The position numbers were made by a program, and so were the translations under genes. From positions 1 through 29,809 of the forward strand of contig CBFGRG010000001.1 of the NCBI GenBank assembly GCA_965651105.1: a stretch of DNA of 29,809 nt, read 5' to 3'. This document shows, one piece after another, positions 12,894 through 28,477 of this stretch (the first letter of the stretch is position 1; each line of letters begins with the position of its first letter). The DNA comes from an uncultured bacterium. Lineage in GTDB: Bacteria > Chloroflexota > Chloroflexia > Thermomicrobiales > UBA6265. Under the pieces are notes generated by a model that did not search any database, had not been told where the DNA came from, and saw only the letters and a list, made by a program, of their open reading frames with translations.

Positions 12894-13017
12894 CGTCCGT
12901 GCCCTCCTCGTCTCGACCGCTCGGCTGGCTCGTGTTTTGGATGATGTTCAGATACCGCACCGCCAGCGAGCCGTCAAGTCAGTCCGATCCGGGCGCGCAC
13001 GAACCCTATGGCCCCGG

Positions 13018-13887
13018 TCAGGCTCCAGTGCCCCAGCCGAGCCGCCGCCACGCTGATGCGGGCAGGATCTGGTCGACTCGCTCCAGCACCCAGTCGGGCC
13101 GGTCGGTCGGGGCGATCCCGGCCAGCATCGCCGGCGTCGTCTCGCCCGTCAGCACAAGCGCCGAAGGCATTCCCGCGTCGAGCGCCATGCGGATATCGGT
13201 CATCAGCCGGTCGCCGATCATCACACAGCGCTCCGCCGGCAGCTCCAGCCGCGCCAGCGCCGCCGCGAGCATGTACGGGTCGGGCTTGCCCGTATGCCGC
13301 CGCAGCGTCGTGCCGGTGCATCCCTCGACCGCGCCGATGATCGCCGCCGCGTCCGGCTCGCCCCGGCCACCGGGAAACGGGCAGAACCGGTCGGGATTGG
13401 TCGCCACCAGAAAGGCGCGACCCTCGGTGCGGATCGCGTCAAAGGCGATCTGCAGCTTCCGGTAGTCGAACCCCCGGTCGTAACTGGCGATCACGATGTC
13501 GATCTCGCGCGGATCTTCCGACATCCGGATCCCGGCAGCGGAGAGCGCATCCTTCAACGGCTGCTCGCTGATCGGGAACACCGTCGCCTCGGGGTGGTGC
13601 GCCAGCAGCCAGGCGGTCATCGTGTCGACCGTGTTCAGCACCTGCTCGGGCGTGGCAGCGATCCCGAACCGCGCCAGCTTGTGCACATACTCGGCGGGCG
13701 AGCTGGTCGGATTGTTGGAGAGGAACAGCACCTTCCGGTCGAGGGCGGCCAGCGCCTCGATCAGCCGCCTCGCGCCAGGCAGCGGGTCATCGCCGAGATA
13801 GATCGTGCCGTCGAGGTCAAAAACATACCCGTCCAGCAACTTGTCCGGACGGGCTGCTCCCGCGATGGATGTCGATTCCGACTGCAT
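13018..13887 (-). CDS. HAD-IIA family phosphatase (NagD/AraL-like)
   Basis: Motif I DLDGTIY; motif II SNN; TNPD; GKP; motif IV GDRLMTDI; LVLTG. Confidence 0.92.
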   Translation of the reverse strand: MQSESTSIAGAARPDKLLDGYVFDLDGTIYLGDDPLPGARRLIEALAALDRKVLFLSNNPTSSPAEYVHKLARFGIAATPEQVLNTVDTMTAWLLAHHPEATVFPISEQPLKDALSAAGIRMSEDPREIDIVIASYDRGFDYRKLQIAFDAIRTEGRAFLVATNPDRFCPFPGGRGEPDAAAIIGAVEGCTGTTLRRHTGKPDPYMLAAALARLELPAERCVMIGDRLMTDIRMALDAGMPSALVLTGETTPAMLAGIAPTDRPDWVLERVDQILPASAWRRLGWGTGA

Positions 13888-13995
13888 TTCTGCTCACTCT
13901 CTCATCACCGATCGCAAAAACTCCGGGCACCATCCCGGCGCCGCGACCTGCCCTCAGCATACCCAGCCTGACCAGAGCGCGCTGCACATTCGTCG

Positions 13996-14009
13996 TGCAC
14001 ATCGGTGCA
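13996..14009. promoter_or_regulatory. palindromic operator 1 (TGCAC-ATCG-GTGCA), putative SorC-family site
   Basis: Perfect TGCAC-N4-GTGCA in the divergent HAD/AraM intergenic region; recurs at 18526, 19507 and 22105. Confidence 0.7.
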
Positions 14010-14025
14010 GGACGAGACTCAGTCA

Positions 14026-14055
14026 TTGACACCCCATCTGCTTCATACGTAGCCT
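14026..14055 (+). promoter_or_regulatory. sigma70-type promoter for the araM-like/derI-like operon
   Basis: TTGACA-N18-TAGCCT. Confidence 0.55.
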
Positions 14056-14116
14056 CATTTCATGACCCGGCGTCGATTGGCCGCGTCCACTCCCGGGATG
14101 CACACGGAGCACGAAC

Positions 14117-15490
14117 ATGACCTTGCGAAACGACCGGCCGCCTGTCCAGCGCGCGCTCGCCGGCGCCTCCACCACGCGCCAGATCGTGATGCGCGCCGGC
14201 GCGCTCGCCGAAACGGGGCGGCTCGCGCGGGAGATGTTCCCCGGTCGCACCGCGGTAATCGTCGCCGACGGAAACACGTTTCGGGTCGCCGGTGAGTGGG
14301 TCCAGGCATCGCTGCGCGATGCTGACGTGTCGATCGCCGAGCCGATCGTGTTCCCGGCCGAGCCGACGCTCCGGCCGGATGTGAGCAATGTCGCGACGAT
14401 CCTCACGCATCTCGGTCCGGACACCGTGCCCGTCGCCGTCGGCTCGGGCACGATCAACGACCTGACGAAGCGCGCCGCCCACGAGGCCGGTCTCCCCTAC
14501 CTGGTGGTGGCCACGGCCGCATCGATGGACGGCTACACCGCCTCCGGCGCGGCCCTGATCGCCGATGGGGTAAAGCAGACATTCCCGTGCGCGGCGCCCG
14601 AAGCGGTGATAGCCGACCTCGATGTGCTCGCGGCGGCGCCGGAGGGCATGACCGCGTCAGGCTACGGCGACCTGATCGGCAAGGTCACGGCCGGCGCCGA
14701 CTGGATCCTGGCCGACGCCCTCGGCATCGAGCCGATCCTGCCCGACGTGTGGGAGATGGTTCAGGGACCGCTGCCCGGCATGATCGCCGATCCCGAACGA
14801 TATTTCCGGGGCGAGCGGGACGAAATCGAGCAGCTCTTCGGCGGTCTGGTGATCACCGGGCTCGCGATCCAGGCCGCCGGCGTCACGCGCCCCGCCTCGG
14901 GCAGCGAGCACCAGTTCAGTCACCTCTGGGAGATGCGCGGGCTCGAGCACCAGGGCGAGCTGGTATCCCACGGCAAGAAGGTCGGCCTCGGCACGATCGT
15001 CTCGACCACGATCTACGAGCGCCTGCTGGCCACCCCGGTCGACCGGCTGGACATCGATCGCGCGGTCGCGGCATGGCCGAGCTGGCCCGAGATGGAGGCG
15101 ATCATCCGGCGCAGCCACGACCACCCCGCGCTGGTCGAGAAGGCACTGGAGGAGTGCCGCGCCAAGCACCTGACGCCGGACGCGCTCGGCGACCGACTGA
15201 CCCGGCTTCGGGACCAGTGGCCGGAGCTCGCGCCGAAACTGCGCGACCAGCTGCTGCCGGTCGGCCAGCTGCGAAGCCTGCTCAGGCAGGCACACTGCCC
15301 CACCCGCCCCGAGGACATCGGGCTCACCCTGACGCAGCTGCGCGAGAGCTACCTCACCGCTGGCCACATCCGCCGCCGGTACACCGTTTTCGACATCGTG
15401 CACGAGGCGGGCCTGCTCAACACGATCGTGGACGACATCTTCTCGCCCGGCGGTCCCTGGGAGACATCTGAAGGAGACGCGACGCCATGA
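14117..15490 (+). CDS. sn-glycerol-1-phosphate dehydrogenase family protein (AraM/EgsA-like, dehydroquinate-synthase-like fold)
   Basis: GSGTINDLTK; TAASMDGY; GYGDLIGK..ADW; SGSEHQFSH; HGKKVG metal-binding His motifs; RBS GGAG. Confidence 0.9.
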   Translation: MTLRNDRPPVQRALAGASTTRQIVMRAGALAETGRLAREMFPGRTAVIVADGNTFRVAGEWVQASLRDADVSIAEPIVFPAEPTLRPDVSNVATILTHLGPDTVPVAVGSGTINDLTKRAAHEAGLPYLVVATAASMDGYTASGAALIADGVKQTFPCAAPEAVIADLDVLAAAPEGMTASGYGDLIGKVTAGADWILADALGIEPILPDVWEMVQGPLPGMIADPERYFRGERDEIEQLFGGLVITGLAIQAAGVTRPASGSEHQFSHLWEMRGLEHQGELVSHGKKVGLGTIVSTTIYERLLATPVDRLDIDRAVAAWPSWPEMEAIIRRSHDHPALVEKALEECRAKHLTPDALGDRLTRLRDQWPELAPKLRDQLLPVGQLRSLLRQAHCPTRPEDIGLTLTQLRESYLTAGHIRRRYTVFDIVHEAGLLNTIVDDIFSPGGPWETSEGDATP

Positions 15491-15990
15491 ACACGGACCG
15501 ATTCGTCCTCGCGATCGGCGCCGACAACGCCGGGGCCGACCTGAAAAACACGATTCGTGACGCGCTCGCCGGCGACGATCGGGTTGAGATTGTGGATTAC
15601 GGCGTCGCCAGCGCCGACGATGACACCGCCTATCCACACATCGGGCTGAACGTCGCCCGGGCGATTGCAGAAGGACAGGCGCGCCGCGGCCTGCTGATCT
15701 GCGGCACGGGCATTGGCATGGCGATTTCGGCGAACAAGGTTCCCGGCGTCCGCGCCACCGTCGCGCACGACTCGTATTCGGTCGAGAGGTCGGTGCTCTC
15801 CAACAACTGCCAGGTGCTGACCCTCGGAGCCCGCGTGGTCGGCCCCGAGCTGGCGCAACGCCTGGTGCGGGAATGGCTGTCATATGAGTTCGACGAAGGT
15901 TCAGCCTCAGCCCAAAAGGTCGCCGTGATCAGCGATTACGAGATCGCGCACGGCGGTTCGCGCCACGCCGAGCGAGACCAGGGCTGCTGA
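15487..15990 (+). CDS. RpiB/LacA/LacB family sugar-phosphate isomerase, DerI/EryI (D-erythrulose-4-phosphate isomerase)-like
   Basis: ICGTGIGMAISANKVPGVRA core; GADNAG, AHDSYSVERSVLSNNCQVL and SASAQKV variants; ATGA overlap with the upstream gene. Confidence 0.88.
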   Translation: MNTDRFVLAIGADNAGADLKNTIRDALAGDDRVEIVDYGVASADDDTAYPHIGLNVARAIAEGQARRGLLICGTGIGMAISANKVPGVRATVAHDSYSVERSVLSNNCQVLTLGARVVGPELAQRLVREWLSYEFDEGSASAQKVAVISDYEIAHGGSRHAERDQGC

Positions 15991-16000
15991 CGGGCACGCA

Positions 16001-17536
16001 TCAGGCACGGCTGAGATCGCTCAGCGCTCGCTGCTGCTCCGTCGTCCGCTCGTACAGCTCGCGATAGATCGCATATCCGGCGTCGTAGACCGAGGCGCGG
16101 TCCGGGTTCGGATCGACCCGCCGCGCGATCCGCGTCCAGCCGCCGACAAGGCGCTCCTCCGAGTCAACGATGCCTGACGCCAGCCCGGCGAGCATCGCAT
16201 CGCCATAGGACGCCCCGAGCGTGCGCTCGGGGATCAGTTGCGACACGCCGGTGATGTCGCTGACGATCTGCACCCACACGTCGCCCTGCGTGCCGCCGCC
16301 GACCGCGATAATCGAGTCCGGCATGGCTCCGGCTTCAGCCATGATCTCGAGGTGGTGCCGCACGCCGTACCCGACCCCCTCCAGGATCGACCGGTAGAGG
16401 TGACCGCGCGTGTGACGCAGCGTGAGTCCGGCGAACATGCCGCGGGCATCGGGATTGTGCAGCGGGGTGCGCTCGCCGGCGAAATACGGTAGGCAGATCA
16501 CCCCCTCGCTGCCGGCCGGGACAGCGTCCGCGAGATCGCACAGTTGACCATAGGCGCTCTCGCCAGTCTCCGCTTCCTTCCTGCGCTCGTCACCGGCCAG
16601 CTCCTCCCGAAACCACTTCGTTATCAGGCCGGACGTCGCCATCCCGCCCATGATCGCGCGGCGCCCCGGCAGGCTGTACGCTGCCGGCCACAGGCGAGGA
16701 TCGGTCCTGTGCTCCGCAACGAGGTTCAGCAGAAAGAAGGTGCTGCCATACATCAGCATCATCTGACCCGGCTCGACCACCCCCACACTCAGCGACTCGG
16801 CGGCCACGTCGATTGTGCCCGGCGTAACGGGGATGCCCTCCGGCAAGCCCGTTTCGGCGCTGGCAGCGGCTGTGACGTACCCTGCAATCTCGTTGGTGTC
16901 CAGTAACCGTGGCAGCCGATCGAGCCCGATGATGTCCCCGGCGAAGCGATCATCCCACTCCAGCCGCTCGATATTGAAGAGTGGATTGAACGCCGACGCC
17001 GTGTGGCGGTCGATCACATGCTCGCCTGTGAGGCGATAGACGATGTAGTCGCTTGACGAATGCACCATCGCCGTGCGGGCGAACAGCTCCGGCTCGTGTC
17101 TGCGCAGCCACAGGATCTTGGGTCCCACCGCCTGAGTGCTGAGCGGCATCCCGCCCAACGCGAAGATCGCCTCGGCACCGTGGCGCTCCTCCAGCCAGGC
17201 GATCTCTGCCGTGGCGCGCGTGTCGATCCCATAGAGCACCGCCGGTCGCAGCGGATGGCCGTCGGCGTCGAGCGGCAACATGCAGGGTCCGATCGCGCTG
17301 ATTGCGACCGCCCCGACATCGGCACTCCGGTTGCTGTCCTTCAGCAGCCGCTGGCAAATCTCCACGAACTCGCCCCACCAGAGCCCGTCGGCGTCGTGCT
17401 CGGCCCAACCTGGTCTGGGAAAGCTGGTGTCATGGTGCACAACTGTCGAGGCGACGACGTCCCCTTCAGACGTACACAGCACGCCTTTCGAGCTGGACGT
17501 GCCGATATCGACGCCGAGCAGCAGTGTCCCAGCCAT
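16001..17536 (-). CDS. FGGY-family carbohydrate/polyol kinase (xylulokinase-like, substrate unknown)
   Basis: LGVDIGTSSSKG; PGWAEHD; IDTRA; GPKILWL; PYFAGERTP..DARG; AVGGG. Start ATG 17536 after GAGAGGA. Confidence 0.93.
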   Translation of the reverse strand: MAGTLLLGVDIGTSSSKGVLCTSEGDVVASTVVHHDTSFPRPGWAEHDADGLWWGEFVEICQRLLKDSNRSADVGAVAISAIGPCMLPLDADGHPLRPAVLYGIDTRATAEIAWLEERHGAEAIFALGGMPLSTQAVGPKILWLRRHEPELFARTAMVHSSSDYIVYRLTGEHVIDRHTASAFNPLFNIERLEWDDRFAGDIIGLDRLPRLLDTNEIAGYVTAAASAETGLPEGIPVTPGTIDVAAESLSVGVVEPGQMMLMYGSTFFLLNLVAEHRTDPRLWPAAYSLPGRRAIMGGMATSGLITKWFREELAGDERRKEAETGESAYGQLCDLADAVPAGSEGVICLPYFAGERTPLHNPDARGMFAGLTLRHTRGHLYRSILEGVGYGVRHHLEIMAEAGAMPDSIIAVGGGTQGDVWVQIVSDITGVSQLIPERTLGASYGDAMLAGLASGIVDSEERLVGGWTRIARRVDPNPDRASVYDAGYAIYRELYERTTEQQRALSDLSRA

Positions 17537-17677
17537 GGCAGCGGCTTCCTCTCTCAACGAATCGATGCGATCTATCCGGTTCCGAACACGCCTCCGGCAA
17601 TGCGTCGGCTGCAGACATGCCGCCCGACTGGGCCGTCCCCGGGAGCGGCACGACGAGGCGTGGACGCAGCGGCTGGA

Positions 17678-18412
17678 TCAGTTGCCATCCAGATGCGCGA
17701 GCAACGCGGTCGGATAATCTGAAGTCACTGAATCCATGCCTCGCCCAATCGCGCTTTCGAGGTCATCGACGGTGTCGCACGGGCCGCCGCCAACGGTGAG
17801 CCCGTGCTCGTGGGCGCGCGCCACAAGCTCGGCAGCGGTCTCCCGATATCGATGCAGGTTGACTTGCGTACAGCCGAGTCGCCGCGCCGTGCCGATCGAA
17901 TCAGGATCGTCAGGCCGGGCGATGAATGCGGTCGCCAACGTTGGAGCGAGCCGCCGGACCGCCTCGACTGCCCCCACCTCGAACGAGGTGACGAGCGATT
18001 GTCGCTCTATGCCGCGCGCGCGAATCTCGTCGACGATCCCTTTGGCGATCCGTTCAATCCGCTCAGGCGTGTCCTTCTTGATCTCGAACTGGAGGACCTC
18101 GAACGTCGCGAGCACGTCAAGCGCCTCGGCCAGTGTCGGCACGCCCACCGGCTCCGACCAGGACGGGCAGGTGCCACGTGCGTCGAGTGCGGCAAGCTCC
18201 GCGGCGGAAAAGCTCTCGACCGCGCCGGTCGCGTTGGTGGTTCGATCGACCGTCGCGTCATGGATGACGACCAGCACATCGTCGCGGGAGATCCGGACAT
18301 CGAACTCGACCCGCCCCAACCCGAGCTGCCGGGCGTACTCGAAACCTGCGATCGTGTTCTCCGGCGACTCACCCATGGCGCCACGATGGCCAATGATCTG
18401 GATGCGCTTCAC
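17678..18412 (-). CDS. cytoplasmic glycerophosphodiester phosphodiesterase (GDPD, UgpQ-like) 1
   Basis: GTG 18412 after GGAGG; IGHRGA..PENT; EFDV; IHDATVDRTT; EIK; no signal peptide. Confidence 0.92.
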   Translation of the reverse strand: MKRIQIIGHRGAMGESPENTIAGFEYARQLGLGRVEFDVRISRDDVLVVIHDATVDRTTNATGAVESFSAAELAALDARGTCPSWSEPVGVPTLAEALDVLATFEVLQFEIKKDTPERIERIAKGIVDEIRARGIERQSLVTSFEVGAVEAVRRLAPTLATAFIARPDDPDSIGTARRLGCTQVNLHRYRETAAELVARAHEHGLTVGGGPCDTVDDLESAIGRGMDSVTSDYPTALLAHLDGN

Positions 18413-18525
18413 CCGTACCTCCCGCCTGTGAATCGGCGCCCCGGTCACGCTCCCGGACACCATCTGGATCGTGTCGATCGGTGCCAGCATACCCGCAGAG
18501 ACGGCATGTTCTTGCACGATTTGCA

Positions 18526-18539
18526 TGCACATCCGTGCA
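18526..18539. promoter_or_regulatory. palindromic operator 2 (TGCAC-ATCC-GTGCA)
   Basis: Perfect motif 114 nt upstream of the corrected GDPD1 start. Confidence 0.7.
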
Positions 18540-18665
18540 GATCGTGATATGAATCGGTGTCACGACTTGCGCGTTCGGCTTCTTGCTTCGGGAGTCTCTT
18601 CGCTTCCGGCGGAGGGCAGGGTCAGCTCAAATTGCGCCCATCAGCAGTCCGCCGCGAGAGCTGGA

Positions 18666-19394
18666 TCACCGGGCCGCCAGCAGCCGCAACATCTCCGTCG
18701 GCACGTCGGAGGTCGCAGCATCGACTCCCCAGTCCAGGCAGCGCTCAAGCGCCTCGGGCGTGTTGCACTGAAACCCGACCACACGCACGCCTTCTCGGTG
18801 CGCCGCGGCGACCATCTCCCGGGAGCTCGTATTCAGAGAGACGTCCACCTGGGTGCACCCCATCCTGAGCGCGTTCTCGAGATAATCAGGGGTATCGAAC
18901 GCGCCAATATAGGCTCGTGCCTGGTCCGGTGCGAGGCGGCCGATCGTCTCGACCGCGTGAACCTCGAACGAAGACACGATCACTCGAGATTCGAGGTGAC
19001 GATCCTGGACCATGCCCAGTACCGCCTCGGCAAGGCGCTCCATGCGCTCGTCGGTGTCCTTCTTGATCTCGATCTGGATCGTACCCATGTCCCCCAGGGC
19101 ATCAAGCACCGACTCCAGGGTGGGCACCCCCACCCGCTCCGGCCAATCCGGCAATGACGCCCGCGCATCGAGCGCGGCCAGCTCCTCGGCGGTAAACGCA
19201 CCCACCGGTCCGGAGCCATCGGTCGTTCGATCGACCGTGCCATCGTGGATCACGACGAGCTGACCGTCCTTGCTGAGATGGACATCGAGCTCGACGGCCG
19301 AAAGCCCGAGCTGCCGAGCGTGACGAAATCCCGGAATCGTGTTCTCGGGCACCTCATTTCGCGCCCCCCTGTGCCCAACGATCTGAAATGTCAC
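18666..19394 (-). CDS. cytoplasmic glycerophosphodiester phosphodiesterase (GDPD, UgpQ-like) 2
   Basis: Start GTG 19394 (or TTG 19397) after AGAGGGGAG; VGHRGA..PENT; ELDV; IHDGTVDRTT; EIK. The track's 509-aa version over-extends into the antisense strand of the regulator. Confidence 0.92.
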   Translation of the reverse strand: MTFQIVGHRGARNEVPENTIPGFRHARQLGLSAVELDVHLSKDGQLVVIHDGTVDRTTDGSGPVGAFTAEELAALDARASLPDWPERVGVPTLESVLDALGDMGTIQIEIKKDTDERMERLAEAVLGMVQDRHLESRVIVSSFEVHAVETIGRLAPDQARAYIGAFDTPDYLENALRMGCTQVDVSLNTSSREMVAAAHREGVRVVGFQCNTPEALERCLDWGVDAATSDVPTEMLRLLAAR

Positions 19395-19506
19395 CAAAAC
19401 GCTCTCCCCTCTGTGCTGCTCCGTCACGCGACCGGCAGGCGGTCGATATCGTGCACAGCGGCAGGTTCGCATACTCGCACAGGCCATATTGGTGCACAAT
19501 AGTTTT

Positions 19507-19520
19507 CGCACGGATGTGCA
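19507..19520. promoter_or_regulatory. palindromic operator 3 (CGCAC-GGAT-GTGCA; minus strand TGCACATCCGTGCG)
   Basis: One mismatch to operator 2; lies between divergent GDPD2 and the SorC-family regulator. Confidence 0.65.
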
Positions 19521-19571
19521 TGGGGCATGACCGACAAGACGTGGCGAGAACGTCGCCGGGAGATACCTGTC

Positions 19572-20561
19572 ATGAGCGATCAACCGATCGAGGTGGAGCG
19601 GACCGAAGGACACTCGGCGTCGGTAGCGACGAACGCCGAGATCATCACCTCCGTGGCGCGACTCTACTATCTCGAACGGCTGGGGCAGGCAGAGATCGCG
19701 TCGATCTACGGCGTGTCTCGATCGACAATCTCGCGAATGTTGACGGCGGCACGGGAGCTCGGCATCGTGCGCATCACGGTGGACGACTACGATCCGCGGG
19801 ATCGCGAGGCAGAGCGGCAGCTGACCAGCCAGTTCGGGCTGCGGCATGCGGTCGTGGTGCGGTCGGTCGAAGGCTCGGATGTCGCCACCCGGCGGGCCGT
19901 CGGGTACTTCGGCGCGCCGGAAGTCGAGGGCTGGATCGAGTCGAGCCACATCGTCGGCGTCGCCGGCGGTCGTTCGATCGGGGAGCTGCTGCGCGCGATC
20001 GGCCACAGAAGCCAGCCACAGGACCTCAAGGTTGTGCAGCTGATGGGCATGATCGGCTCCAGCCCGAGCAGTGTCGACGCGTCCGAGCTGAGCCGAATCC
20101 TCGCCAGCCGGTTTCACGGCGAGTTCCACAACATCAGCGCGCCGGCCTTCGTGAAGGACAAGCGCACGCGGGACCTCTTTCTCTCCCACTCCCAAATCCA
20201 GTCCGTCTGGAGTCGGTTCGAAGCGCTCGACCTCGCGTTTATCGGCATCGGCACCCTCGAGGACTCGGTTTTTGTCGAACGCAAGGTGCTCGATGATTCC
20301 GAGCTGGCGAAAGCAAGGCGCTCAGGCGCGGTCGGCGAGATTTGCGGACGCTTCTTCGACCAATCCGGGCAGGAGTGCGACTCGCCGTTCCGGAACCGCG
20401 TCGTCAGCATCGAGCTCGACGCACTTCGGAAAGGGAAAGAGGTGGTTGGTGTGACCACCGGCGCCTCGCGCGGCGAAGCTGTCCGCGCGGCGCTTCGCGG
20501 CGGACTTGTGCACTCACTGGTGATGGACGACACCTGCGCGCGGAGCGTGCTCGACGGGTGA
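19572..20561 (+). CDS. SorC/DeoR(Bsu)-family sugar-phosphate-binding transcriptional regulator
   Basis: ARLYYLERLGQAEIASIYGVSRSTISRMLTAARELGIVRI HTH; GVAGGRSI; GIG; GAVGEICGRFFD sugar-binding domain. Start ATG 19572 (GGAG, 9 nt) preferred over 19527. Confidence 0.93.
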   Translation: MSDQPIEVERTEGHSASVATNAEIITSVARLYYLERLGQAEIASIYGVSRSTISRMLTAARELGIVRITVDDYDPRDREAERQLTSQFGLRHAVVVRSVEGSDVATRRAVGYFGAPEVEGWIESSHIVGVAGGRSIGELLRAIGHRSQPQDLKVVQLMGMIGSSPSSVDASELSRILASRFHGEFHNISAPAFVKDKRTRDLFLSHSQIQSVWSRFEALDLAFIGIGTLEDSVFVERKVLDDSELAKARRSGAVGEICGRFFDQSGQECDSPFRNRVVSIELDALRKGKEVVGVTTGASRGEAVRAALRGGLVHSLVMDDTCARSVLDG

Positions 20562-20587
20562 CTCCTGCCGGGTCGATCCCGGGTACG

Positions 20588-21952
20588 CTACATCAGCACC
20601 TCTTCCGGCAGGACCCGGGCGAAGGGGGCCGTGCGCGGTGAGGCGTCATGGATGGCCGATGGAGCCGGCTCCCCGGCCTCGACCATGCGACTCACCAGCC
20701 GCTGCTTCAGGTGGTCGGCCACAGCACGGTGCGATTCGAGCCCGACCAGGTTGTTCAGCTCGTAGGGATCCACCTCCAGATCGTAAAGATACGTTTCCGT
20801 GTACTCGTCCGCGCCCGGAGCCGAACGCCCGTTGAGCCCCAGTGCGGTGACGGAGTATTTCCAGCGGGGCGTGCGGATGGCACGACCAATTTCGCTCTCG
20901 CTGATCTGGATAAAGACTTCGTTGCGCCACTCGCTCCGAGCACGCTGGCCGTCGCGAACGAGCGGCACGATCGATCGGCCCTGCATCGCCTCGGGCACGT
21001 CAATCCCGGCCGCATCGAGCAGCGTGGGCGGAAGGTCGATGAGACTGACCAGCTCGGCCACCTCGCCGCCACCGAAGAAACCGGGGCCGGTCAGCACGGT
21101 CGGCACCCGGACCGATGCATCCTGGCAGGATCGCTTGTACTCCCGCTCGTTTCCGCGCGTCTTGAAGTGGCAGCCGTGATCCGATGTGAAGAGGATGATC
21201 GTGTTGTCCCGCAGCCCGAGGCTCTTGAGGGCATCGAGCAGCCGGCCGTAGGCTTCATCCAGCCGTTTGATCATGCCCCAGTACCCGGCGATCTGCCGGT
21301 GCGCCGATCCGCCGAGCGCGGCCAGATCCGGTGGCAGCCAGCGCCCCTGGTAGCGCTCGCGGTAGCCATCCGGCGCCGGGTAGTCATCGGTGCGATTTTG
21401 GTGGTGCGGTTCCAGGTAGGAGCAGAAGAGGAAGAATGGCTCGTCGCGGTGGTCACTGACGAAGCGGATCGCCGCGTCGGTTTGGGCATCGACCCTGTAC
21501 CCGGGCAGGGTGACCTCCCGTTCCGCTTCGTCGTAGACCGTGAACCAGTATGGCTCGGAAGTATGTTCGAGGGTGTTCGCGGCAAGCCAGGTCGCATAGC
21601 CGCCTCGCTCCTCCGCGGACACCGGGTCGCCACTCGCGAGGTGCCATTTGCCGATGTAGCCCGTATGGTACCCGGCGTCGGCGAAATAATTGGCGAGCGT
21701 CGGCATGTCGCTCGGTAGCGCCATGGCGTCGTTTTTCCAGACACCGGTGCGGGTGGCGTAGAGACCCGTCTGCAGCGACGACCTGGCAGGACCACACACG
21801 GGCTGACAGGTGATCGACGTGTTCACATGCGTGCCCTGTCGTGCAATTCGGTCCAGATTCGGTGTCAACTCAAGCGGGTTGCCGTGCAGGCCGGTCGAGT
21901 CCCACCGCTGCTGATCCGTCAGGAACACAATCACGTTTGGTCGTTCGCTCAT
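20588..21952 (-). CDS. formylglycine-dependent sulfatase family hydrolase 1 (cytoplasmic)
   Basis: PNVIVFLTDQQR; CGPARSSLQTG (CxPxR); GKWH; PH; TSDHG. Start ATG 21952. Confidence 0.92.
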   Translation of the reverse strand: MSERPNVIVFLTDQQRWDSTGLHGNPLELTPNLDRIARQGTHVNTSITCQPVCGPARSSLQTGLYATRTGVWKNDAMALPSDMPTLANYFADAGYHTGYIGKWHLASGDPVSAEERGGYATWLAANTLEHTSEPYWFTVYDEAEREVTLPGYRVDAQTDAAIRFVSDHRDEPFFLFCSYLEPHHQNRTDDYPAPDGYRERYQGRWLPPDLAALGGSAHRQIAGYWGMIKRLDEAYGRLLDALKSLGLRDNTIILFTSDHGCHFKTRGNEREYKRSCQDASVRVPTVLTGPGFFGGGEVAELVSLIDLPPTLLDAAGIDVPEAMQGRSIVPLVRDGQRARSEWRNEVFIQISESEIGRAIRTPRWKYSVTALGLNGRSAPGADEYTETYLYDLEVDPYELNNLVGLESHRAVADHLKQRLVSRMVEAGEPAPSAIHDASPRTAPFARVLPEEVLM

Positions 21953-22104
21953 TCCTTCAAGACTCCTCTCCTGTGCGATCGTCGCTGACCTCCGGCCAAT
22001 GCATCCTGCCGGAATCGCACACCGTCGCCTGAGCCGACGCTGCTGGCCCATCAGGATGTACGGTCATCAAGTCACAGCGTGGCACAGAATGGCACGCTTG
22101 TAGC

Positions 22105-22118
22105 TGCACATGTGTGCA
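22105..22118. promoter_or_regulatory. palindromic operator 4 (TGCAC-ATGT-GTGCA)
   Basis: Perfect motif in the divergent sulfatase/sulfatase region, which also holds extra TGCAC half-sites at 22115, 22166, 22175 and 22189. Confidence 0.7.
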
Positions 22119-22133
22119 CACCCCTCTTTCTGT

Positions 22134-22163
22134 TTGACGCTGTCCGATGCGTGCTGCTAGCGT
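22134..22163 (+). promoter_or_regulatory. sigma70-type promoter for the sulfatase2-ABC-phoD unit
   Basis: TTGACG-N18-TAGCGT, same spacing as the promoter at 14026. Confidence 0.55.
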
Positions 22164-22272
22164 GGTGCACACGTTGCACGAACGGATTTGCACGCGCATC
22201 GCTCCGCGAGCCGCACACAGCGATCGACGGCATCCTCGAGCGGGCATTGCAGCAGACGAGGCAGCAGCCACC

Positions 22273-23724
22273 TTGACCACCACGTGGAGACCCAACATCG
22301 TCGTCTTGATGGCCGACGACCACCGGGGCACGGAGATGAGTCACCTGCCTCACGGGCAGGCCCGGACGCCGGTGCTCGATGCCCTCGCAGCACGTGGCGT
22401 CTCGTTCGACGGCGCTCACTGCCAGGGATCGATGATCCGGGCCGTTTGCGTGCCGAGCCGCGCCAGCCTCATGACCGGACGGAATATCTTCGCGTCGTCC
22501 AGCGACCCGACCGGCGGCGACTTCCAATGCGCCATCACCATTCCGCCCGACCTCGAAACCTTCCCCGAAGCGCTCCGCCGCGCCGGGTATCGCACCCACG
22601 CCGTGGGCAAGTGGCACAACGACACCGCGTCATTCCAGCGCTCCTTCTCCAGCGGCGACGCGATCATGTTCCTGGGCATGAGCGATCACCATGAGGTACC
22701 GACGTGGACCTATGATCCTGACGGCGAATACGCAGGCGCGAACGCCTGGAACTTCGATGAGCCACATACGGAAGAGGACACGGCCGGGAGCTATGTGTAC
22801 CGCGAAGGCTTTTCCAGCGACATCTTCGCGGACGCCGCGATCGACTTCCTCGGTCAGGACCACGGCGACGATCCGTTCCTGATGTACGTCGCCTTCACCG
22901 CCCCCCACGACCCGCGCACGCCCCCGCCGGGATGGGAGGTCGACCCTCAATCGATCGAGTTGCCGCCCAACTTCCTGCCCGAACATCCCTTCGACAACGG
23001 AGAGATGGAGGTGCGGGACGAGCTGCTGGCGGAATTCCCGCGCTCCGAAGCGGAAATCCGGCAGCACATCGCCGACTACTACGGCATGATTGCCCACCTC
23101 GATCACACGATTGGTCGCATCGTCGGCGCGATCGAGGAGCACGGCCTGGCTGACGACACCGTGATCATCTACACCGGCGACCACGGGTTGGCGGTGGGCC
23201 AGCACGGCCTGATGGGCAAGCAGAACCTTTACGAGCACAGCCTCCGCGTCCCGCTGGTGATAGCCGGTCCCGGCGTTCCGGCCACCGGTGTCGTCCACGG
23301 ACTTTCATGGCACGCGGATACCACGGCGACGATCTATGCGCTCGCGGGCTTGCCGCCCAACCCATCGGCGGAAGGCACCTCACTGATCGACAGCAACGGA
23401 GTCATTGCCGCACCTCGGCGGACACTTGGGGCCGCCTACGAGTACAGCCAGCGATCGTTTCGGGACCATCGGCACAAGCTCATCCGCTACTGGAAGGTCC
23501 GGGACACTGTCCCGAATCCAGGCACCACGCCGGGAACCGACATGGTCCAGCTCTATGACCTCGAGCGCGACCCGTGGGAGATGGACAACCTCGCGGACGA
23601 CCCGAGTTACGCGGAGACCCTCGAGCGCCTCAATCACGGGCTCCAACAGTGGCAGCGAGATGTCGACGATGTCCAGCTCGCTTTCCACCCAGGGATCGGT
23701 GACGCGACAGGAGCATGTTCATGA
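22273..23724 (+). CDS. formylglycine-dependent sulfatase family hydrolase 2 (cytoplasmic)
   Basis: Probable TTG start at 22273 (GAGG upstream); PNIVVLMADDHR; CVPSRASLMTG; GKWH; APHDP; TGDHG; GKQNLYE. Confidence 0.92.
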   Translation: MTTTWRPNIVVLMADDHRGTEMSHLPHGQARTPVLDALAARGVSFDGAHCQGSMIRAVCVPSRASLMTGRNIFASSSDPTGGDFQCAITIPPDLETFPEALRRAGYRTHAVGKWHNDTASFQRSFSSGDAIMFLGMSDHHEVPTWTYDPDGEYAGANAWNFDEPHTEEDTAGSYVYREGFSSDIFADAAIDFLGQDHGDDPFLMYVAFTAPHDPRTPPPGWEVDPQSIELPPNFLPEHPFDNGEMEVRDELLAEFPRSEAEIRQHIADYYGMIAHLDHTIGRIVGAIEEHGLADDTVIIYTGDHGLAVGQHGLMGKQNLYEHSLRVPLVIAGPGVPATGVVHGLSWHADTTATIYALAGLPPNPSAEGTSLIDSNGVIAAPRRTLGAAYEYSQRSFRDHRHKLIRYWKVRDTVPNPGTTPGTDMVQLYDLERDPWEMDNLADDPSYAETLERLNHGLQQWQRDVDDVQLAFHPGIGDATGACS

Positions 23725-23873
23725 GCGTTTGACGATTGGGGCACCGATGTACGGGACATTACAGGGGCCACGGGGCTGAACGTTCGCAACGGATCAGCAT
23801 CGTATCCATGGGGAGGCAAATACCGGCATCGAGCAGGCAGTCCGCGGAGTAGCCCAGACAGGAGACCACGGCA

Positions 23874-25184
23874 ATGACCAGGATGAATCGACGACGTTTC
23901 ACAAGTAGCGCGGTGGCGGCTGGCGCGGCGGCGGCCGTTGGTGGCGCGGCGAGCGCGTCGTCCCCGAAGCGGAGTGCCGCCCCGGCGGTGATACGGGCGC
24001 AGAACGCCCCCGTCGAGATCGTCTTCTCCAACATCTGGGGAACGCCGCCGGGTGGTGACGCCCCGGAAAACAAGCACCCGGTCGACCTGGTGATCGAGGC
24101 GTTCAACGAGCAGAGCACCGACGTCAAGGTCACGGGCCGCGTCGACGGCGGGTACTACGAGGGGCTCCAAAAGCTCCAGGCCGAGCTTGCGGCGGGATCT
24201 CCACCCGCCCTGTGCATCACCCCGTGGAACAGCATCAACTGGGCCGATGCAGGGCTCGGCATCATCAACCTTGAAGACATCGCCGGTGACGAGGTTGCCG
24301 AAGTCTTCGGGAACCTCAAGGATCAGGTGATCCCGTTGGTGCAGATCGATGGGAAGACCAAGGGCGTGCCGTACGCGTTTTCGACCCCGGTTGTCTATTA
24401 CAACAACGATATCCTCGCCGACGCGGGTGTCGCGGCCGAGGATCTGTTCCAGAGCTGGGCTTCGTACAGTGAGGAAGGTCTCAAGGTCCAGGCGGCGACC
24501 GACGGCAATCCGATCTTCGGGTTCCTTGGCGATAGCCAATGGACAGCCCAGAGCCTCATCCAGTGCAATGGCGGCTTTGTGCTGAACGAAAATGGCGAGC
24601 CTGTGATGGACAGCCCGGAGGCCATTGCGGCAATGCAGGCGGTTGCCGACATGGATAGCCAGGGGCTGTATGACAGGTCGACGGCGAGTGAGGTGCGTGC
24701 ATCGTTCACCGCTGGCTCCACTGCGTCGTGGATCGGCAGCATCGCCTCGCTCGGTGGGCTCAAGAACACGGTCACCTACGACCTTCAGACGTCGACATTC
24801 CCGGTGTTCGACGACAAGCCGCGCATGATGTCGAGTGGTGGATCGTTCATCGGGGTCTACGCGCGCGAGGAAGAGCAACAGCAGGCGGCCTGGGAGTTCC
24901 TCAAGTTCGCGTTGTCGGAAGAGGGGTACTCGATCTGGATGCAGACGGGCTATCTCAACGCGACCAAGTACGACCTTCCCATCATCGAGGGCCAGGAAGC
25001 GGCGTACACCCAGCTCGAAGAGGGTCTGACCCGCGAGACGCCGTGGCCGACTGCGCGCGGCGGCGAGCTGCTGGCGATCTGGCAGAACTACGTGTCCCGT
25101 ATCTGGGCAAATGACATCAGTGCCGAGGAAGGGTGCCAGCAAGCGGTCGAGGAGATCAACGCGGTTATCGAATCAGCTGGCTGA
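23874..25184 (+). CDS. ABC transporter substrate-binding protein (family 1, UgpB-like), Tat signal
   Basis: MNRRRF Tat motif; PYAFSTPVVYYN; SGGS; TGYL; RBS CAGGAG. Confidence 0.88.
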   Translation: MTRMNRRRFTSSAVAAGAAAAVGGAASASSPKRSAAPAVIRAQNAPVEIVFSNIWGTPPGGDAPENKHPVDLVIEAFNEQSTDVKVTGRVDGGYYEGLQKLQAELAAGSPPALCITPWNSINWADAGLGIINLEDIAGDEVAEVFGNLKDQVIPLVQIDGKTKGVPYAFSTPVVYYNNDILADAGVAAEDLFQSWASYSEEGLKVQAATDGNPIFGFLGDSQWTAQSLIQCNGGFVLNENGEPVMDSPEAIAAMQAVADMDSQGLYDRSTASEVRASFTAGSTASWIGSIASLGGLKNTVTYDLQTSTFPVFDDKPRMMSSGGSFIGVYAREEEQQQAAWEFLKFALSEEGYSIWMQTGYLNATKYDLPIIEGQEAAYTQLEEGLTRETPWPTARGGELLAIWQNYVSRIWANDISAEEGCQQAVEEINAVIESAG

Positions 25185-25217
25185 TCACTCGCGCCAGGAA
25201 ACGAAAGGACTGCAGAC

Positions 25218-26507
25218 ATGTCTGGCATCACCCGACGAACCCTCATTGGCCGCGCGGGAGCAGCCGGCGCGGCACTCGCGGGAGGCGCATCGCTTGCCGG
25301 CCTCTCGCCCGCGGTCATGGCAGCGCAGGACGTGACCGAGATCACGTTCTACAACATCTGGGGAACGCCGCCGGGCGGCGAAACCTCGGACACCAAGCAT
25401 CCGGTCGATCAGGTCATCGACGCATTCAATGAGCAAAGCACCGACATCAAGGTGACCGGGGAAACGCCGGGGAACTACTTCGAAACGCTCCAGAAGGCGC
25501 AGGCGCAGATCGCCGCCGGCGATGCGCCCGCGCTGATCACGACGCCATGGGCGAACATCAACTACGCCTACGAAGGGCTCGGGATCATTCCGCTCGAGGA
25601 CATCGCCGGCGACGAGGTGGCAGAAGCGTTCAGCGCCTTCCAGGAGCAGGTCATACCGCTGGTCCAGGTCGATGGCAACACCGTGGGCATGCCCTACGCA
25701 TTCTCCTGCCCGGTCATCTACTACAACGCGGATGTCTTCGAAGAGGCCGGCGTGGATCCGGACGAGATGTTCGCGACGTGGGCCAGCGTGCTGGAACAGG
25801 GACCGGCCATTCAGGAAGTGCTGGACGGCAATCCGATCATTGGCGAGATCACCAATCCCGACTGGCCCGCCCAGAGCATCATCCAAAGCAACGGAGGAAC
25901 GGTGCTCGATGACGACGGCGTGCCGGTGATGGACAGTCCGGAAGCCATCGAAGCGCTCCAGGCGATCGCCGATCTCGACAACGCGGGCCTGTATGACCGG
26001 TCCACCACTGCTGAGCGACGCGCGTCGTTCCTCGGCGGATCGACGGCCTGCATCATCGGGAGCATCGCGTCGCTGGGGGGCCTGCAAAACAACGCAACGT
26101 TCAACCTGCAGACCCACACCTTCCCGACCTTCGGCGACAAGCCGCGCAGGATGGCAAGCGGCGGCTCCTTCATTGGGATCTACGCCCGCGAGGAAGAGCA
26201 GCAGCAGGCGGCATGGGAATACCTCAAGTTCGCCATGTCCGAGGAGGGCTACGGTATCTGGATGCAGACGGGATACCTCAACCCCACCACCTACGACCTG
26301 CCTCGCCTCGAAGGCCAGGAGGCGGCCTACACCCAGCTCGATGAAGGCCTCACGCCCGAGACGCCGTGGCCGACCGCGCGCGGCGGCGAGCTCCAGGCGA
26401 TCTGGGGCGATTTCGTCGCCCGGATCTGGGCAAACGACATGAGTGCCGAAGACGGCTGCGCACAAGCGGTCGAGGAGCTCACGGCCATGATCGAACAGGC
26501 GAGTTAA
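25218..26507 (+). CDS. ABC transporter substrate-binding protein (family 1, UgpB-like), Tat signal, paralog of 23874..25184
   Basis: ITRRTL Tat motif; GNYFE; PYAFSCPVIYYN; SGGS; TGYL; RBS GAAAGGA. Confidence 0.88.
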   Translation: MSGITRRTLIGRAGAAGAALAGGASLAGLSPAVMAAQDVTEITFYNIWGTPPGGETSDTKHPVDQVIDAFNEQSTDIKVTGETPGNYFETLQKAQAQIAAGDAPALITTPWANINYAYEGLGIIPLEDIAGDEVAEAFSAFQEQVIPLVQVDGNTVGMPYAFSCPVIYYNADVFEEAGVDPDEMFATWASVLEQGPAIQEVLDGNPIIGEITNPDWPAQSIIQSNGGTVLDDDGVPVMDSPEAIEALQAIADLDNAGLYDRSTTAERRASFLGGSTACIIGSIASLGGLQNNATFNLQTHTFPTFGDKPRRMASGGSFIGIYAREEEQQQAAWEYLKFAMSEEGYGIWMQTGYLNPTTYDLPRLEGQEAAYTQLDEGLTPETPWPTARGGELQAIWGDFVARIWANDMSAEDGCAQAVEELTAMIEQAS

Positions 26508-26535
26508 GCCGCCTCGAACGGACCGAAAACCGTCT

Positions 26536-26582
26536 CACGGCCCACCACTCGTTCGCCTCGGCTGAACTGGTGGTGGGTCGTG
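26536..26582 (+). other. intercistronic stem-loop after the SBP genes
   Basis: CACGGCCCACCACTCGTTCG pairs with ...GAACTGGTGGTGGGTCGTG (about 19 of 20 pairs, counting G-U); no U-tract. Confidence 0.55.
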
Positions 26583-26627
26583 CGAGGGGCACAGCAATCA
26601 CTTCACACCACGGGGCAAGGAAGCTGG

Positions 26628-27581
26628 ATGGCGAGCATTCGCGTCACAACCCAGGGCGACACGTCGCCGAGCGACGTCAAGCGCCAGCGGTTCACCTGGT
26701 ACAGGATCAGGGAGGGCGCGACGCCCTATCTGCTCATCGCACCATTGCTGATCCTGGTGGCGATTTTCATTTACTGGCCACTGTTGTATTCGACGTATCT
26801 CTCGTTCTTTGACTGGAACTTCGTTCGCCCCGACAAGGACTTCGTCGGTTGGGACAACTACACCCAGCTGTGGGGTGATCCGCGCTTCATGCGCGCACTC
26901 AACGGAACGTGGATCTATTTCGTCACGCTGATTCCGATCCAGGTCTTTCTTCCACTCGGGCTGGCCATGCTCCTTTGGCCGATCCGACGTGCCCCCGGAC
27001 AGCACGCCTACCGCGTCGTCCTCTTTTCCCCAACGGTGGTCGCGTGGTCGGTGGGCGCGGTGATGTGGCTGTGGATCTTCAATCCGCTGCAGGGCCTGCT
27101 CAACAAGGTGCTCGCCGAGTTCGGTGTGGAGCGCATCAACTGGCTTTCGGATCGTGACACCGCGATCTGGACCGTGATCGTGGTGGCGACGTGGAAGACG
27201 CTGGGCTTCAACCTGCTGCTCTACCTGGCCGCGCTCGAGGCGGTGCCGCACGACTATGTCGAGGCGGCGTCACTGGATGGCGCCAGCAAGTGGCAGATCA
27301 TGAAAACCATCCGCTTCCCGCTCATCACACCGACATTCTTCTTCGTGCTCGTCACCACCGTGATCTCGGTGAACGACGACGTCTTCGGCGCGATCAACGT
27401 GCTCACGGAGGGAGGTCCATTCGAATCCACCACCAACATCGTCTATTACCTCTATGAGCAGGGATTCAGGTACTTCCAGATCGGTGACGCGAGTGCTGTT
27501 TCCATCATCATCTTCATCGCCACGGTCTTCCTGACCTGGCTGCAATTCCGCTTCATCGAAGGACGCGTGCATTATGGCTAG
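26628..27581 (+). CDS. carbohydrate ABC transporter permease (UgpA/MalF-like)
   Basis: ATG 26628 after AAGGA; FVGWDNY; GLLN..WLSD; EAA motif YVEAASLDGAS; YYLYEQGF. Confidence 0.93.
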   Translation: MASIRVTTQGDTSPSDVKRQRFTWYRIREGATPYLLIAPLLILVAIFIYWPLLYSTYLSFFDWNFVRPDKDFVGWDNYTQLWGDPRFMRALNGTWIYFVTLIPIQVFLPLGLAMLLWPIRRAPGQHAYRVVLFSPTVVAWSVGAVMWLWIFNPLQGLLNKVLAEFGVERINWLSDRDTAIWTVIVVATWKTLGFNLLLYLAALEAVPHDYVEAASLDGASKWQIMKTIRFPLITPTFFFVLVTTVISVNDDVFGAINVLTEGGPFESTTNIVYYLYEQGFRYFQIGDASAVSIIIFIATVFLTWLQFRFIEGRVHYG

Positions 27582-28446
27582 CATGGTGACCGCACCCAGG
27601 TCCCGAGCCGCGCAACGGGGAGACCGCGCGAGCAATTTCGTCGTGCACGTGGTCATCATCACGATCTGCGTGCTGACCATCTTCCCATTCTTCTGGATGT
27701 TCTCCACCTCCTTCAAGCAGGCGAACGAGGTCTTTACCAAAGACATCCAGCTGATCCCCCTGAACCCGACGTTGAGGAACTATCCGGATGCCTTCAGCTA
27801 CTTCCCGGTCGCGAACTGGTTCTGGAACAGCTTCGCCATCTCTGTGTTGACGACAGTGGGCAAGCTGGCGATCAGCATACCCGCGGCGTTCGCCTTCTCT
27901 CGGCTGCGATTCCCCGGTCGATCATTCTTTTTCGCCGTGGTCCTTGCGACGATGATTGTGCCCGGCGTGACGCACATCGTTCCGAATTATGTGCTCGTCT
28001 CGAATCTGGGGTGGCTCAACTCCTGGGCGGGTGTCGTGATCCCGTCCCTGCCAGCCACGGCCTTCTACATGTTCCTCATTCGTCAAAGCGTGATGACCCT
28101 GCCGCAGGAGCTGATCGACGCCGGCCGCCTCGATGGCGCCTCGACCCTCCAGCTGCTCTGGCAGATCGTCATCCCGAACATCCGGCCCGCCATCGCTGTC
28201 GTCAGCATCCTGTCATTCCTCGGGGCGTGGAACCAGTACCTGTGGCCGCTGCTGGTGTTGAACGATTTCGAATCGAAGACACTGGCCGTGGGCATGCAGT
28301 TCTTCACGTCGAACACCGAGTCGGCCCAGCTCTGGGGACCGATGATGGCGACCGCCGCGATCGCGACCATCCCGCCGCTGCTCATCTTCGCCCTTGCCCA
28401 AAAACAGATCATCTCCACGTTCGTCACCTCGGGCATCAAGGGCTAG
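27574..28446 (+). CDS. carbohydrate ABC transporter permease (UgpE/MalG-like)
   Basis: 8-nt overlap with the upstream gene; PFFWMFSTSFK; AFAFSRLRFPGR; ELIDAGRLDGA; WNQYLWPL; SGIKG C-terminus. Confidence 0.93.
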   Translation: MASMVTAPRSRAAQRGDRASNFVVHVVIITICVLTIFPFFWMFSTSFKQANEVFTKDIQLIPLNPTLRNYPDAFSYFPVANWFWNSFAISVLTTVGKLAISIPAAFAFSRLRFPGRSFFFAVVLATMIVPGVTHIVPNYVLVSNLGWLNSWAGVVIPSLPATAFYMFLIRQSVMTLPQELIDAGRLDGASTLQLLWQIVIPNIRPAIAVVSILSFLGAWNQYLWPLLVLNDFESKTLAVGMQFFTSNTESAQLWGPMMATAAIATIPPLLIFALAQKQIISTFVTSGIKG

Positions 28447-28477
28447 AGCCCACGGTGACGCCAGAAAGAGGCCCATT

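Follow-up and report, generated by a model that had tools for sequence, protein, structure and literature searches.

A conserved 14-bp palindrome as the predicted operator of a SorC-family regulator in uncultured Chloroflexota

Which protein, if any, reads the short palindrome that recurs between the genes of a cluster rich in phosphodiesterase genes in an uncultured bacterium of the Chloroflexota (Chloroflexia; Thermomicrobiales; UBA6265)? The window, i.e., the whole analyzed stretch of 29,809 nucleotides (contig CBFGRG010000001.1 of assembly GCA_965651105.1), carries copies of the pattern TGCAC-N4-GTGCA on both sides of a gene for a SorC-family regulator with a helix-turn-helix (HTH) domain of the DeoR/SorC subclass. 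A first-pass annotation had claimed that this pattern marks four promoter regions covering seven transcription directions, and that it is the operator of the encoded regulator, its own gene included. In this study, we propose that the 14-bp palindrome TGCACATATGTGCA is indeed the predicted operator of this protein, a reading to which we assign a probability of roughly 85%. It is supported by the conservation of the motif with orthologs of the regulator, its rarity in the genome and its likeness to the operator of Bacillus subtilis DeoR.

Sites in the window and in the genome

A pattern search of the window returned three perfect copies of TGCAC-N4-GTGCA (operators 1, 2 and 4; Table 1), where 0.06 are expected per window; three or more were reached in none of 100 shuffles that preserved the dinucleotide composition. 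Operator 3, found in a one-mismatch search, departs from the pattern at a single base. After correction of the gene starts, each of the four sites falls between genes, 110-155 bp upstream of the starts, in a segment (13018-29809) of which 8.2% is intergenic. The four promoter regions of the first-pass annotation thus stand, and so do its seven transcription directions: HAD; Fe-ADH_2-RpiB; GDPD1-FGGY; GDPD2; the regulator; sulfatase 1; and sulfatase 2 with the ATP-binding cassette (ABC) transporter genes and PhoD. The other one-mismatch matches of the window (18844 and 21832) lie within genes; their spacers are rich in G+C, and the weight matrix introduced below gives them less than 12.

The assembly that holds the window (G000; 3.41 Mb in 538 contigs, 66% G+C) contains, besides the three perfect matches of this cluster, only one other, and the motif is thus not common genome-wide. 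The bare pattern is as frequent in G000 as its reversed control (4 vs 4), and it is not commoner than the control in 40 relatives either. Consequently, the signal resides in clustering, intergenic placement and an A/T-rich spacer, and not in genome-wide enrichment. A symmetrised weight matrix was trained on the relatives' sites only; its consensus, which is that of the family, is TGCACATATGTGCA, with either C or A at position 3. Scanning G000 with this matrix gives four matches at a score of at least 18, compared to 0.8 expected under a second-order Markov model. The perfect sites of the window take ranks 1, 3 and 4 in the genome, and operator 3 is tied for rank 8.

Rank 2 is held by C447:2268, which lies on another contig of G000, flanked by an MgtC-family gene and a third GDPD gene (GDPD3). 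This fifth predicted operator copy (C447:2254-2281, L027) consists of TGCACATATGTGCC with CGCACAAATGCGC abutting it. The divergent MgtC/GDPD pair recurs together with a site in relative G005 (L062:1416), and in G006 an MgtC homolog directly follows PhoD in the cluster. The fourth perfect match of G000 (C24:2522), which has the spacer TGGA and stands beside a beta-lactamase-family gene, does not reach a score of 12 and is attributed to chance. Further matrix matches on contigs C250, C306, C126 and C217 are found within genes or beside unrelated genes and are not claimed as sites.

Conservation with the regulator and likeness to the DeoR operator

A search of the 40 relatives found orthologs of the regulator (50-88% identity) in nine, all belonging to the same family, and in each of these nine the motif, with at most one mismatch, lies upstream of the regulator gene. 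The surrounding clusters of the nine share genes for GDPD, HAD, Fe-ADH_2-RpiB, FGGY, binding proteins, permeases and PhoD. In an independent search of 300 genomes of the class, orthologs occurred in 19/62 genomes of this family vs 0/239 of other families. All 14 ortholog loci outside the matrix training (45-62% identity) carry a site scoring at least 17 at a distance of 16-180 bp upstream of the aligned start; the chance of such an upstream site is about 2e-4 per locus. The autoregulatory site predicted in the first-pass annotation is among these conserved sites: the motif precedes the regulator gene in 9/9 and 14/14 orthologous loci, as expected of a local autoregulated regulon. When the DNA between GDPD2 and the regulator gene is aligned for four genomes of the genus (alignment A1), the tandem operator stands out as an invariant island in diverged DNA, and GTGCACA of the site abutting operator 3 is invariant as well.

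Three of the four loci with paralogs of 27-32% identity lack a strong site, the best of these scoring 13.5 (L011, in G015). The 29%-identical paralog in G036 (L013) also has TGAACAATTGTGCA upstream. Both L011 and L013 come from unpublished genomes, and no main claim rests on either. Strong copies elsewhere in ortholog-bearing relatives precede an OmpR-family response regulator and kinase that adjoin an MMPL gene (G005, L033:3001), precede an IclR-family regulator (G006, L034:3001 and 3029) or separate a Tat-signal binding protein from an ECF sigma factor (G011, L038:1557). These copies could be lineage-specific regulon members or chance.

The regulator itself matches PF04198 (Sugar-bind; NagB-like, C-terminal phosphosugar-binding) with an E-value of 1.7e-60 over residues 93-342 of the 19527 frame. 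Its best NCBIfam match is Bacillus DeoR at 181 bits, far below the equivalog cut-off of 420, and it shows full-length matches with SorC (2w48, E 2e-35), B. subtilis DeoR (8r7y, E 5e-29) and LsrR. In its N-terminal HTH domain, SRSTISR aligns with SRPTVSR of DeoR, the segment that holds R34 and R39, and both arginines are conserved. These two residues make base contacts in B. subtilis DeoR, whose 39-bp operator is located at -60 to -21 with its sequence given; a DeoR tetramer occupies two half-operators and is released by phosphosugar effectors (PMC11229326).

Applied to this 39-bp operator, the Chloroflexota matrix is positive at two offsets only and negative at all others. The two offsets correspond to the left half-operator TGAACAAAATTTCA, which scores 12.6, and the right half-operator TTTACATATGTTCA, which scores 14.3. 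The motif thus has the make-up of a DeoR-type operator, an inverted repeat with arms TGxACA and TGTxCA in a 14-bp frame, and TGAACA arms are also present among the relatives' sites. The comparison with known SorC-family motifs that the first-pass annotation had suggested consequently ends in an agreement of geometry and a near-match of sequence with the B. subtilis DeoR operator. The DeoR layout of two half-operators about 22 bp apart, occupied by one tetramer, is not shared by these sites, where secondary sites mostly stand at 14 bp.

Operator layout, promoters and genes of the proposed regulon

The strong sites are accompanied by secondary sites at a recurrent distance: exactly +/-14 bp in 14 of 19 cases, 13 bp in two, and 10, 23 and 24 bp in one each. 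An offset of +/-14 bp means that two palindromes abut. In the window, the partner sites are weaker than the main sites (Table 1). In genus g2, two tandem palindrome pairs stand 83-84 bp apart upstream of the regulator gene (L019:9444-9554, L051, L053 and L054), an arrangement that could allow looping or separate control of two divergent promoters.

Individual operators are shared by different sets of relatives. The intergenic region of operator 1 also bears a site in G003, G005 and G006, and TGCACATT of the auxiliary site beside it is kept in G003. G002 has a site at the position of operator 2 (L043:3001) and keeps operator 4 (L015:5846), on whose plus side the genes of the ABC transporter and PhoD follow. 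Operator 2 lies 111 nt upstream of the corrected start of GDPD1, and operator 3 is the putative autoregulatory site.

Promoter boxes were derived from conservation, as a strict sigma-70 promoter scan yielded nothing useful in the intergenic regions. Both hexamers of the putative Fe-ADH_2-RpiB promoter are kept in G003 and G005, with a differing spacer between them, and the putative promoter of sulfatase 2 and the ABC genes has the same layout relative to its operator. The same site/-35 layout as at operators 1 and 4 is found at the regulator genes of G003 and G005. There (L016:10056-10134 and L017:9180-9234, respectively), the regulator's TTGACA-N18-TAGGGT ends 9 nt before the ATG, which suggests that the mRNA may be leaderless or near-leaderless; in G000 (window 19521-19571) and G002 the -10 position is instead taken up by a ribosome-binding site, CGGGAG. 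On the minus side of sites 1-3, an auxiliary half-site stands between the main site and the TATGCT/TATGCG box. Taken together, these putative -35/-10-like boxes would set the sites at about -40 to -60, with the main palindrome presumably near -53 to -59.

Table 1. Predicted operators, putative promoter elements and genes of the cluster, in window coordinates
Feature	Position	Strand	Sequence	Location and relation	Matrix score
Operator 1 (predicted)	13996-14009		TGCACATCGGTGCA	between divergent HAD phosphatase gene and Fe-ADH_2-RpiB genes	18.6
Auxiliary weak site or half-site	13983-13995		TGCACATTCGTCG	adjoins operator 1, 13-bp offset	5.2
Operator 2 (predicted)	18526-18539		TGCACATCCGTGCA	serves GDPD1-FGGY on minus strand	20.2
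Auxiliary half-site	18513-18525		TGCACGATTTGCA	adjoins operator 2, 13-bp offset; read directly from the sequence
Operator 3 (predicted)	19507-19520		CGCACGGATGTGCA (on + strand)	between GDPD2 (-) and regulator gene (+)	14.6
Auxiliary site	19493-19506		TGCACAATAGTTTT	abuts operator 3, 14-bp offset	6.2
Operator 4 (predicted)	22105-22118		TGCACATGTGTGCA	between two divergent sulfatase genes	21.7 (top of genome)
Secondary weaker site	22179-22192		CGAACGGATTTGCA	74 bp downstream of operator 4, upstream of corrected sulfatase 2 start	9.6
Putative promoter of Fe-ADH_2-RpiB	14026-14055	+	TTGACA-N18-TAGCCT	starts 16 nt after operator 1
Putative promoter of sulfatase 2 and ABC genes	22134-22163	+	TTGACG-N18-TAGCGT	starts 15 nt after operator 4
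Putative -10 box, HAD gene	13956-13961	-	TATGCT	34 nt from operator 1
Putative -10 box	18486-18491	-	TATGCT	34 nt from operator 2
Putative -10 box	19468-19473	-	TATGCG	33 nt from operator 3
HAD-IIA phosphatase	13018-13887	-		regulon member (predicted)
Fe-ADH_2 protein, glycerol-1-phosphate-dehydrogenase-like	14117-15490	+
RpiB	15487-15990	+
Xylulokinase-like FGGY kinase	16001-17557	-
GDPD1 phosphodiesterase	17678-18414	-
GDPD2 phosphodiesterase	18666-19397	-
SorC-family regulator, DeoR/SorC HTH subclass	19572-20561	+		proposed binder of the operators
Sulfatase-family gene 1	20588-21954	-
Sulfatase-family gene 2, two solute-binding proteins, two permeases, PhoD	22273-29809	+		PhoD gene cut by the contig end

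Gene identities were taken from Pfam and NCBIfam, and starts from the reading frames. For GDPD1 the start is GTG 18414, which follows GGGAGG at five bases and directly precedes the IIGHRG motif; an ATG inside the palindrome was rejected in its favor. GDPD2 starts at TTG 19397, preceded by GGGGAG, the regulator at ATG 19572, preceded by GGGAG, and sulfatase 1 at ATG 21954 (MSERPNVIVF...). For sulfatase 2 the start is placed at about TTG 22273, as the preceding 45 residues are not conserved, even in an 84%-identical ortholog. The longest open reading frames of GDPD1 and sulfatase 2 begin at ATGs in or beside operators (window 18412-18532 and 22147-22275). Given the likely true starts at GTG 18414 and TTG 22273, automatic annotation would bury two of the sites within genes.

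In the segment 13018-15990, the HAD-IIA phosphatase gene is paired with genes for a 457-residue glycerol-1-phosphate-dehydrogenase-like protein and RpiB. The latter passes the cut-off for actinobacterial ribose-5-phosphate isomerase and has a likeness to erythrulose-4-phosphate isomerase as well. The pathway may possibly act on polyol phosphates derived from teichoic acids or lipid head groups.

On this basis, we propose the following mechanism. A dimer of the regulator's N-terminal HTH domains would read each palindrome, and abutting 14-bp palindromes, or a palindrome with a half-site, would suit the dimer-of-dimers (tetramer) of the family. Four intergenic regions of the window bear such predicted sites, and contig C447 bears one more. 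In one direction each site would be followed after 15-16 nt by a -35 box, and in the opposite direction after 33-34 nt by a -10-like TATGCT box. The regulator would thereby control seven transcription units of the window, including its own, in addition to the GDPD3 and MgtC genes on C447. The predicted regulon would comprise three GDPD enzymes, PhoD, the HAD phosphatase, the glycerol-1-phosphate-dehydrogenase-like enzyme, RpiB, the FGGY kinase and two sulfatase-family enzymes, together with an ABC importer with two binding proteins. By analogy with its characterized relatives, the regulator would most likely repress these genes until a phosphorylated pathway intermediate releases it. The motif, its rarity, placement and conservation with the regulator gene, and its likeness to the DeoR operator are observed; that the protein binds it, that it represses rather than activates, and which kind of effector it answers to are inferred.

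Weighing the alternatives, and comparison with known systems

Several observations weigh against the operator reading or against parts of it. The regulator and the target genes are gained and lost together, and co-occurrence can therefore not fully separate the regulator from another cluster-linked factor. Among five well-complete relatives without the regulator that were searched for cluster genes, PhoD was found in G017 only and the Fe-ADH_2 gene in none (0/5), which leaves G017 as the single informative case for such a separation. One high-scoring site each is also present in three relatives in which no ortholog was found (G017, G012 and G022). These sites adjoin unrelated genes and their number is about that expected by chance (0.2 per 3.4 Mb over approximately 65 Mb). 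Furthermore, the tandem offset is 14 bp vs the 22-bp spacing of the DeoR half-operators, and on the plus strand the main site is centered near -59 without overlap with the core promoter.

The latter position would also suit an activator. The alternative that survives best is indeed that the same protein binds the motif and acts as an activator or as a dual regulator, instead of as a plain repressor. The SorC protein of Klebsiella is reported to act as both activator and repressor. The layout in the window accommodates such a role, since the main palindrome ends 15-16 nt upstream of the conserved -35 boxes, and the minus-strand promoters are devoid of a clear -35 box with the auxiliary site near -40. 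Yet, B. subtilis DeoR is a repressor with a palindrome at -60 to -43, and most of the characterized family members (DeoR, CggR, LsrR) repress. Overall, we regard an activating or dual role as unlikely, though it keeps appreciable weight.

It is far less probable that another regulator, with its gene outside the cluster, binds the motif, e.g., the response regulator of the phosphate-starvation (Pho) response. Pho regulons typically include genes for GDPD, PhoD and a Ugp-like ABC system, one copy of the motif in G005 precedes the OmpR-family response regulator, and in G000 the pstS promoter lies beyond a contig end (C33:8790-13078, with PhoU and pst genes and pstS cut off). The motif is, however, an inverted repeat and not a set of direct repeats with an 11-bp period, and it fits the DeoR operator. 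In four ortholog-bearing relatives (G003, G006, G011 and G014), no site scoring at least 12 is present within 1.5 kb of pstS, and likewise none occurs near PhoD in G017, where no regulator was found. Save for a chance-level number of matches, the motif is restricted to genomes with an ortholog of the SorC-family protein. The Pho link was therefore dropped; the response regulator of G005 is not specifically PhoB, and the binding protein in G022 is TupA-like.

Finally, it is hardly credible that the copies are non-regulatory repeats, i.e., leftovers of duplicated promoters (the GDPD and sulfatase genes form paralog pairs), a restriction-modification or methylation target (GTGCAC within the motif is a palindromic hexamer) or chance, a reading that the sequence conservation already largely refutes: the 14-mer is invariant across genera while its flanks have diverged, the genome shows neither enrichment nor avoidance of the bare pattern, only promoters of a single functional gene set bear the sites, and no Rfam family matches the region (12900-24000), which argues against an RNA element.

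As the predicted operator of the SorC-family regulator, the palindrome is part of a regulator-operator pair that is conventional in mechanism and newly described for a Chloroflexota family. The pair is set apart by a half-site that is slightly altered and by tandem sites that abut, and it delimits a predicted regulon for the scavenging of phosphodiesters. It offers a testable operator and a defined regulon for an uncultured Chloroflexota lineage for which we found no characterized transcription factor; a literature search for the motif string also returned nothing relevant. The predicted regulon joins five promoter regions and about twenty genes, including the GDPD-MgtC pair on another contig. 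Genes of unclear role (those for the glycerol-1-phosphate-dehydrogenase-like protein, RpiB, the FGGY kinase and two sulfatases) would thereby be tied to the GDPD/PhoD pathway, which helps to guess its substrate. More tentatively, and with considerable doubt, we suggest that phosphodiester scavenging (GDPD, PhoD, ABC uptake and polyol/glycerol-phosphate enzymes) is in this Chloroflexota family induced by its substrate via a DeoR-like regulator and not by phosphate starvation, and that abutting 14-bp palindromes are an operator layout new for the SorC family. If true, neighboring dimers would lie on different faces of the helix, in a tetramer-DNA geometry unlike that of DeoR and CggR.

Compared to known systems, the target set is similar in kind to that of the Pho boxes read by PhoB/PhoP (GDPD, PhoD, phosphoester uptake), yet those boxes are direct repeats read by response regulators, whereas the motif described here is palindromic and was not found at pstS. 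E. coli LsrR belongs to the SorC family, shows full-length similarity to the regulator and responds to a phosphorylated effector, but its boxes, as reported, are short A/T-rich words unlike the palindrome. B. subtilis CggR, a member of the same family, binds as a tetramer to a two-part operator and is released by the phosphorylated intermediates fructose-1,6-bisphosphate (FBP) and dihydroxyacetone phosphate (DHAP). It differs by a winged-helix DNA-binding domain of another subclass and by an operator of GGGAC-type repeats located downstream of the transcription start. Klebsiella pneumoniae SorC (2w48) is the best match with a solved structure by sequence, over the full length and with the same two-domain layout; it controls the sorbose operon, and no defined SorC operator was found for comparison.

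The closest parallel is DeoR of B. subtilis, the regulator of dra-nupC-pdp (8r7y; PMC11229326). Both are SorC-family proteins with an HTH domain in which R34 and R39 are conserved, both are associated with a 14-bp inverted repeat TGxACA-N2-TGTxCA, and in both cases the regulator gene adjoins its targets. The palindrome is situated upstream of the promoter for DeoR, at -60 to -43, and would be so here as well, at an estimated -53 to -59. The differences concern the arms (TGCACA here vs TGAACA in DeoR), the spacing of paired sites (14 bp and abutting vs 22 bp), the extent of the regulon (five predicted operators and about nine transcription units vs one operon) and its content (phosphodiester and polyol-phosphate genes vs deoxyribonucleoside genes). 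The half-site code TGxACA of DeoR would thus hold across phyla, with one base changed.

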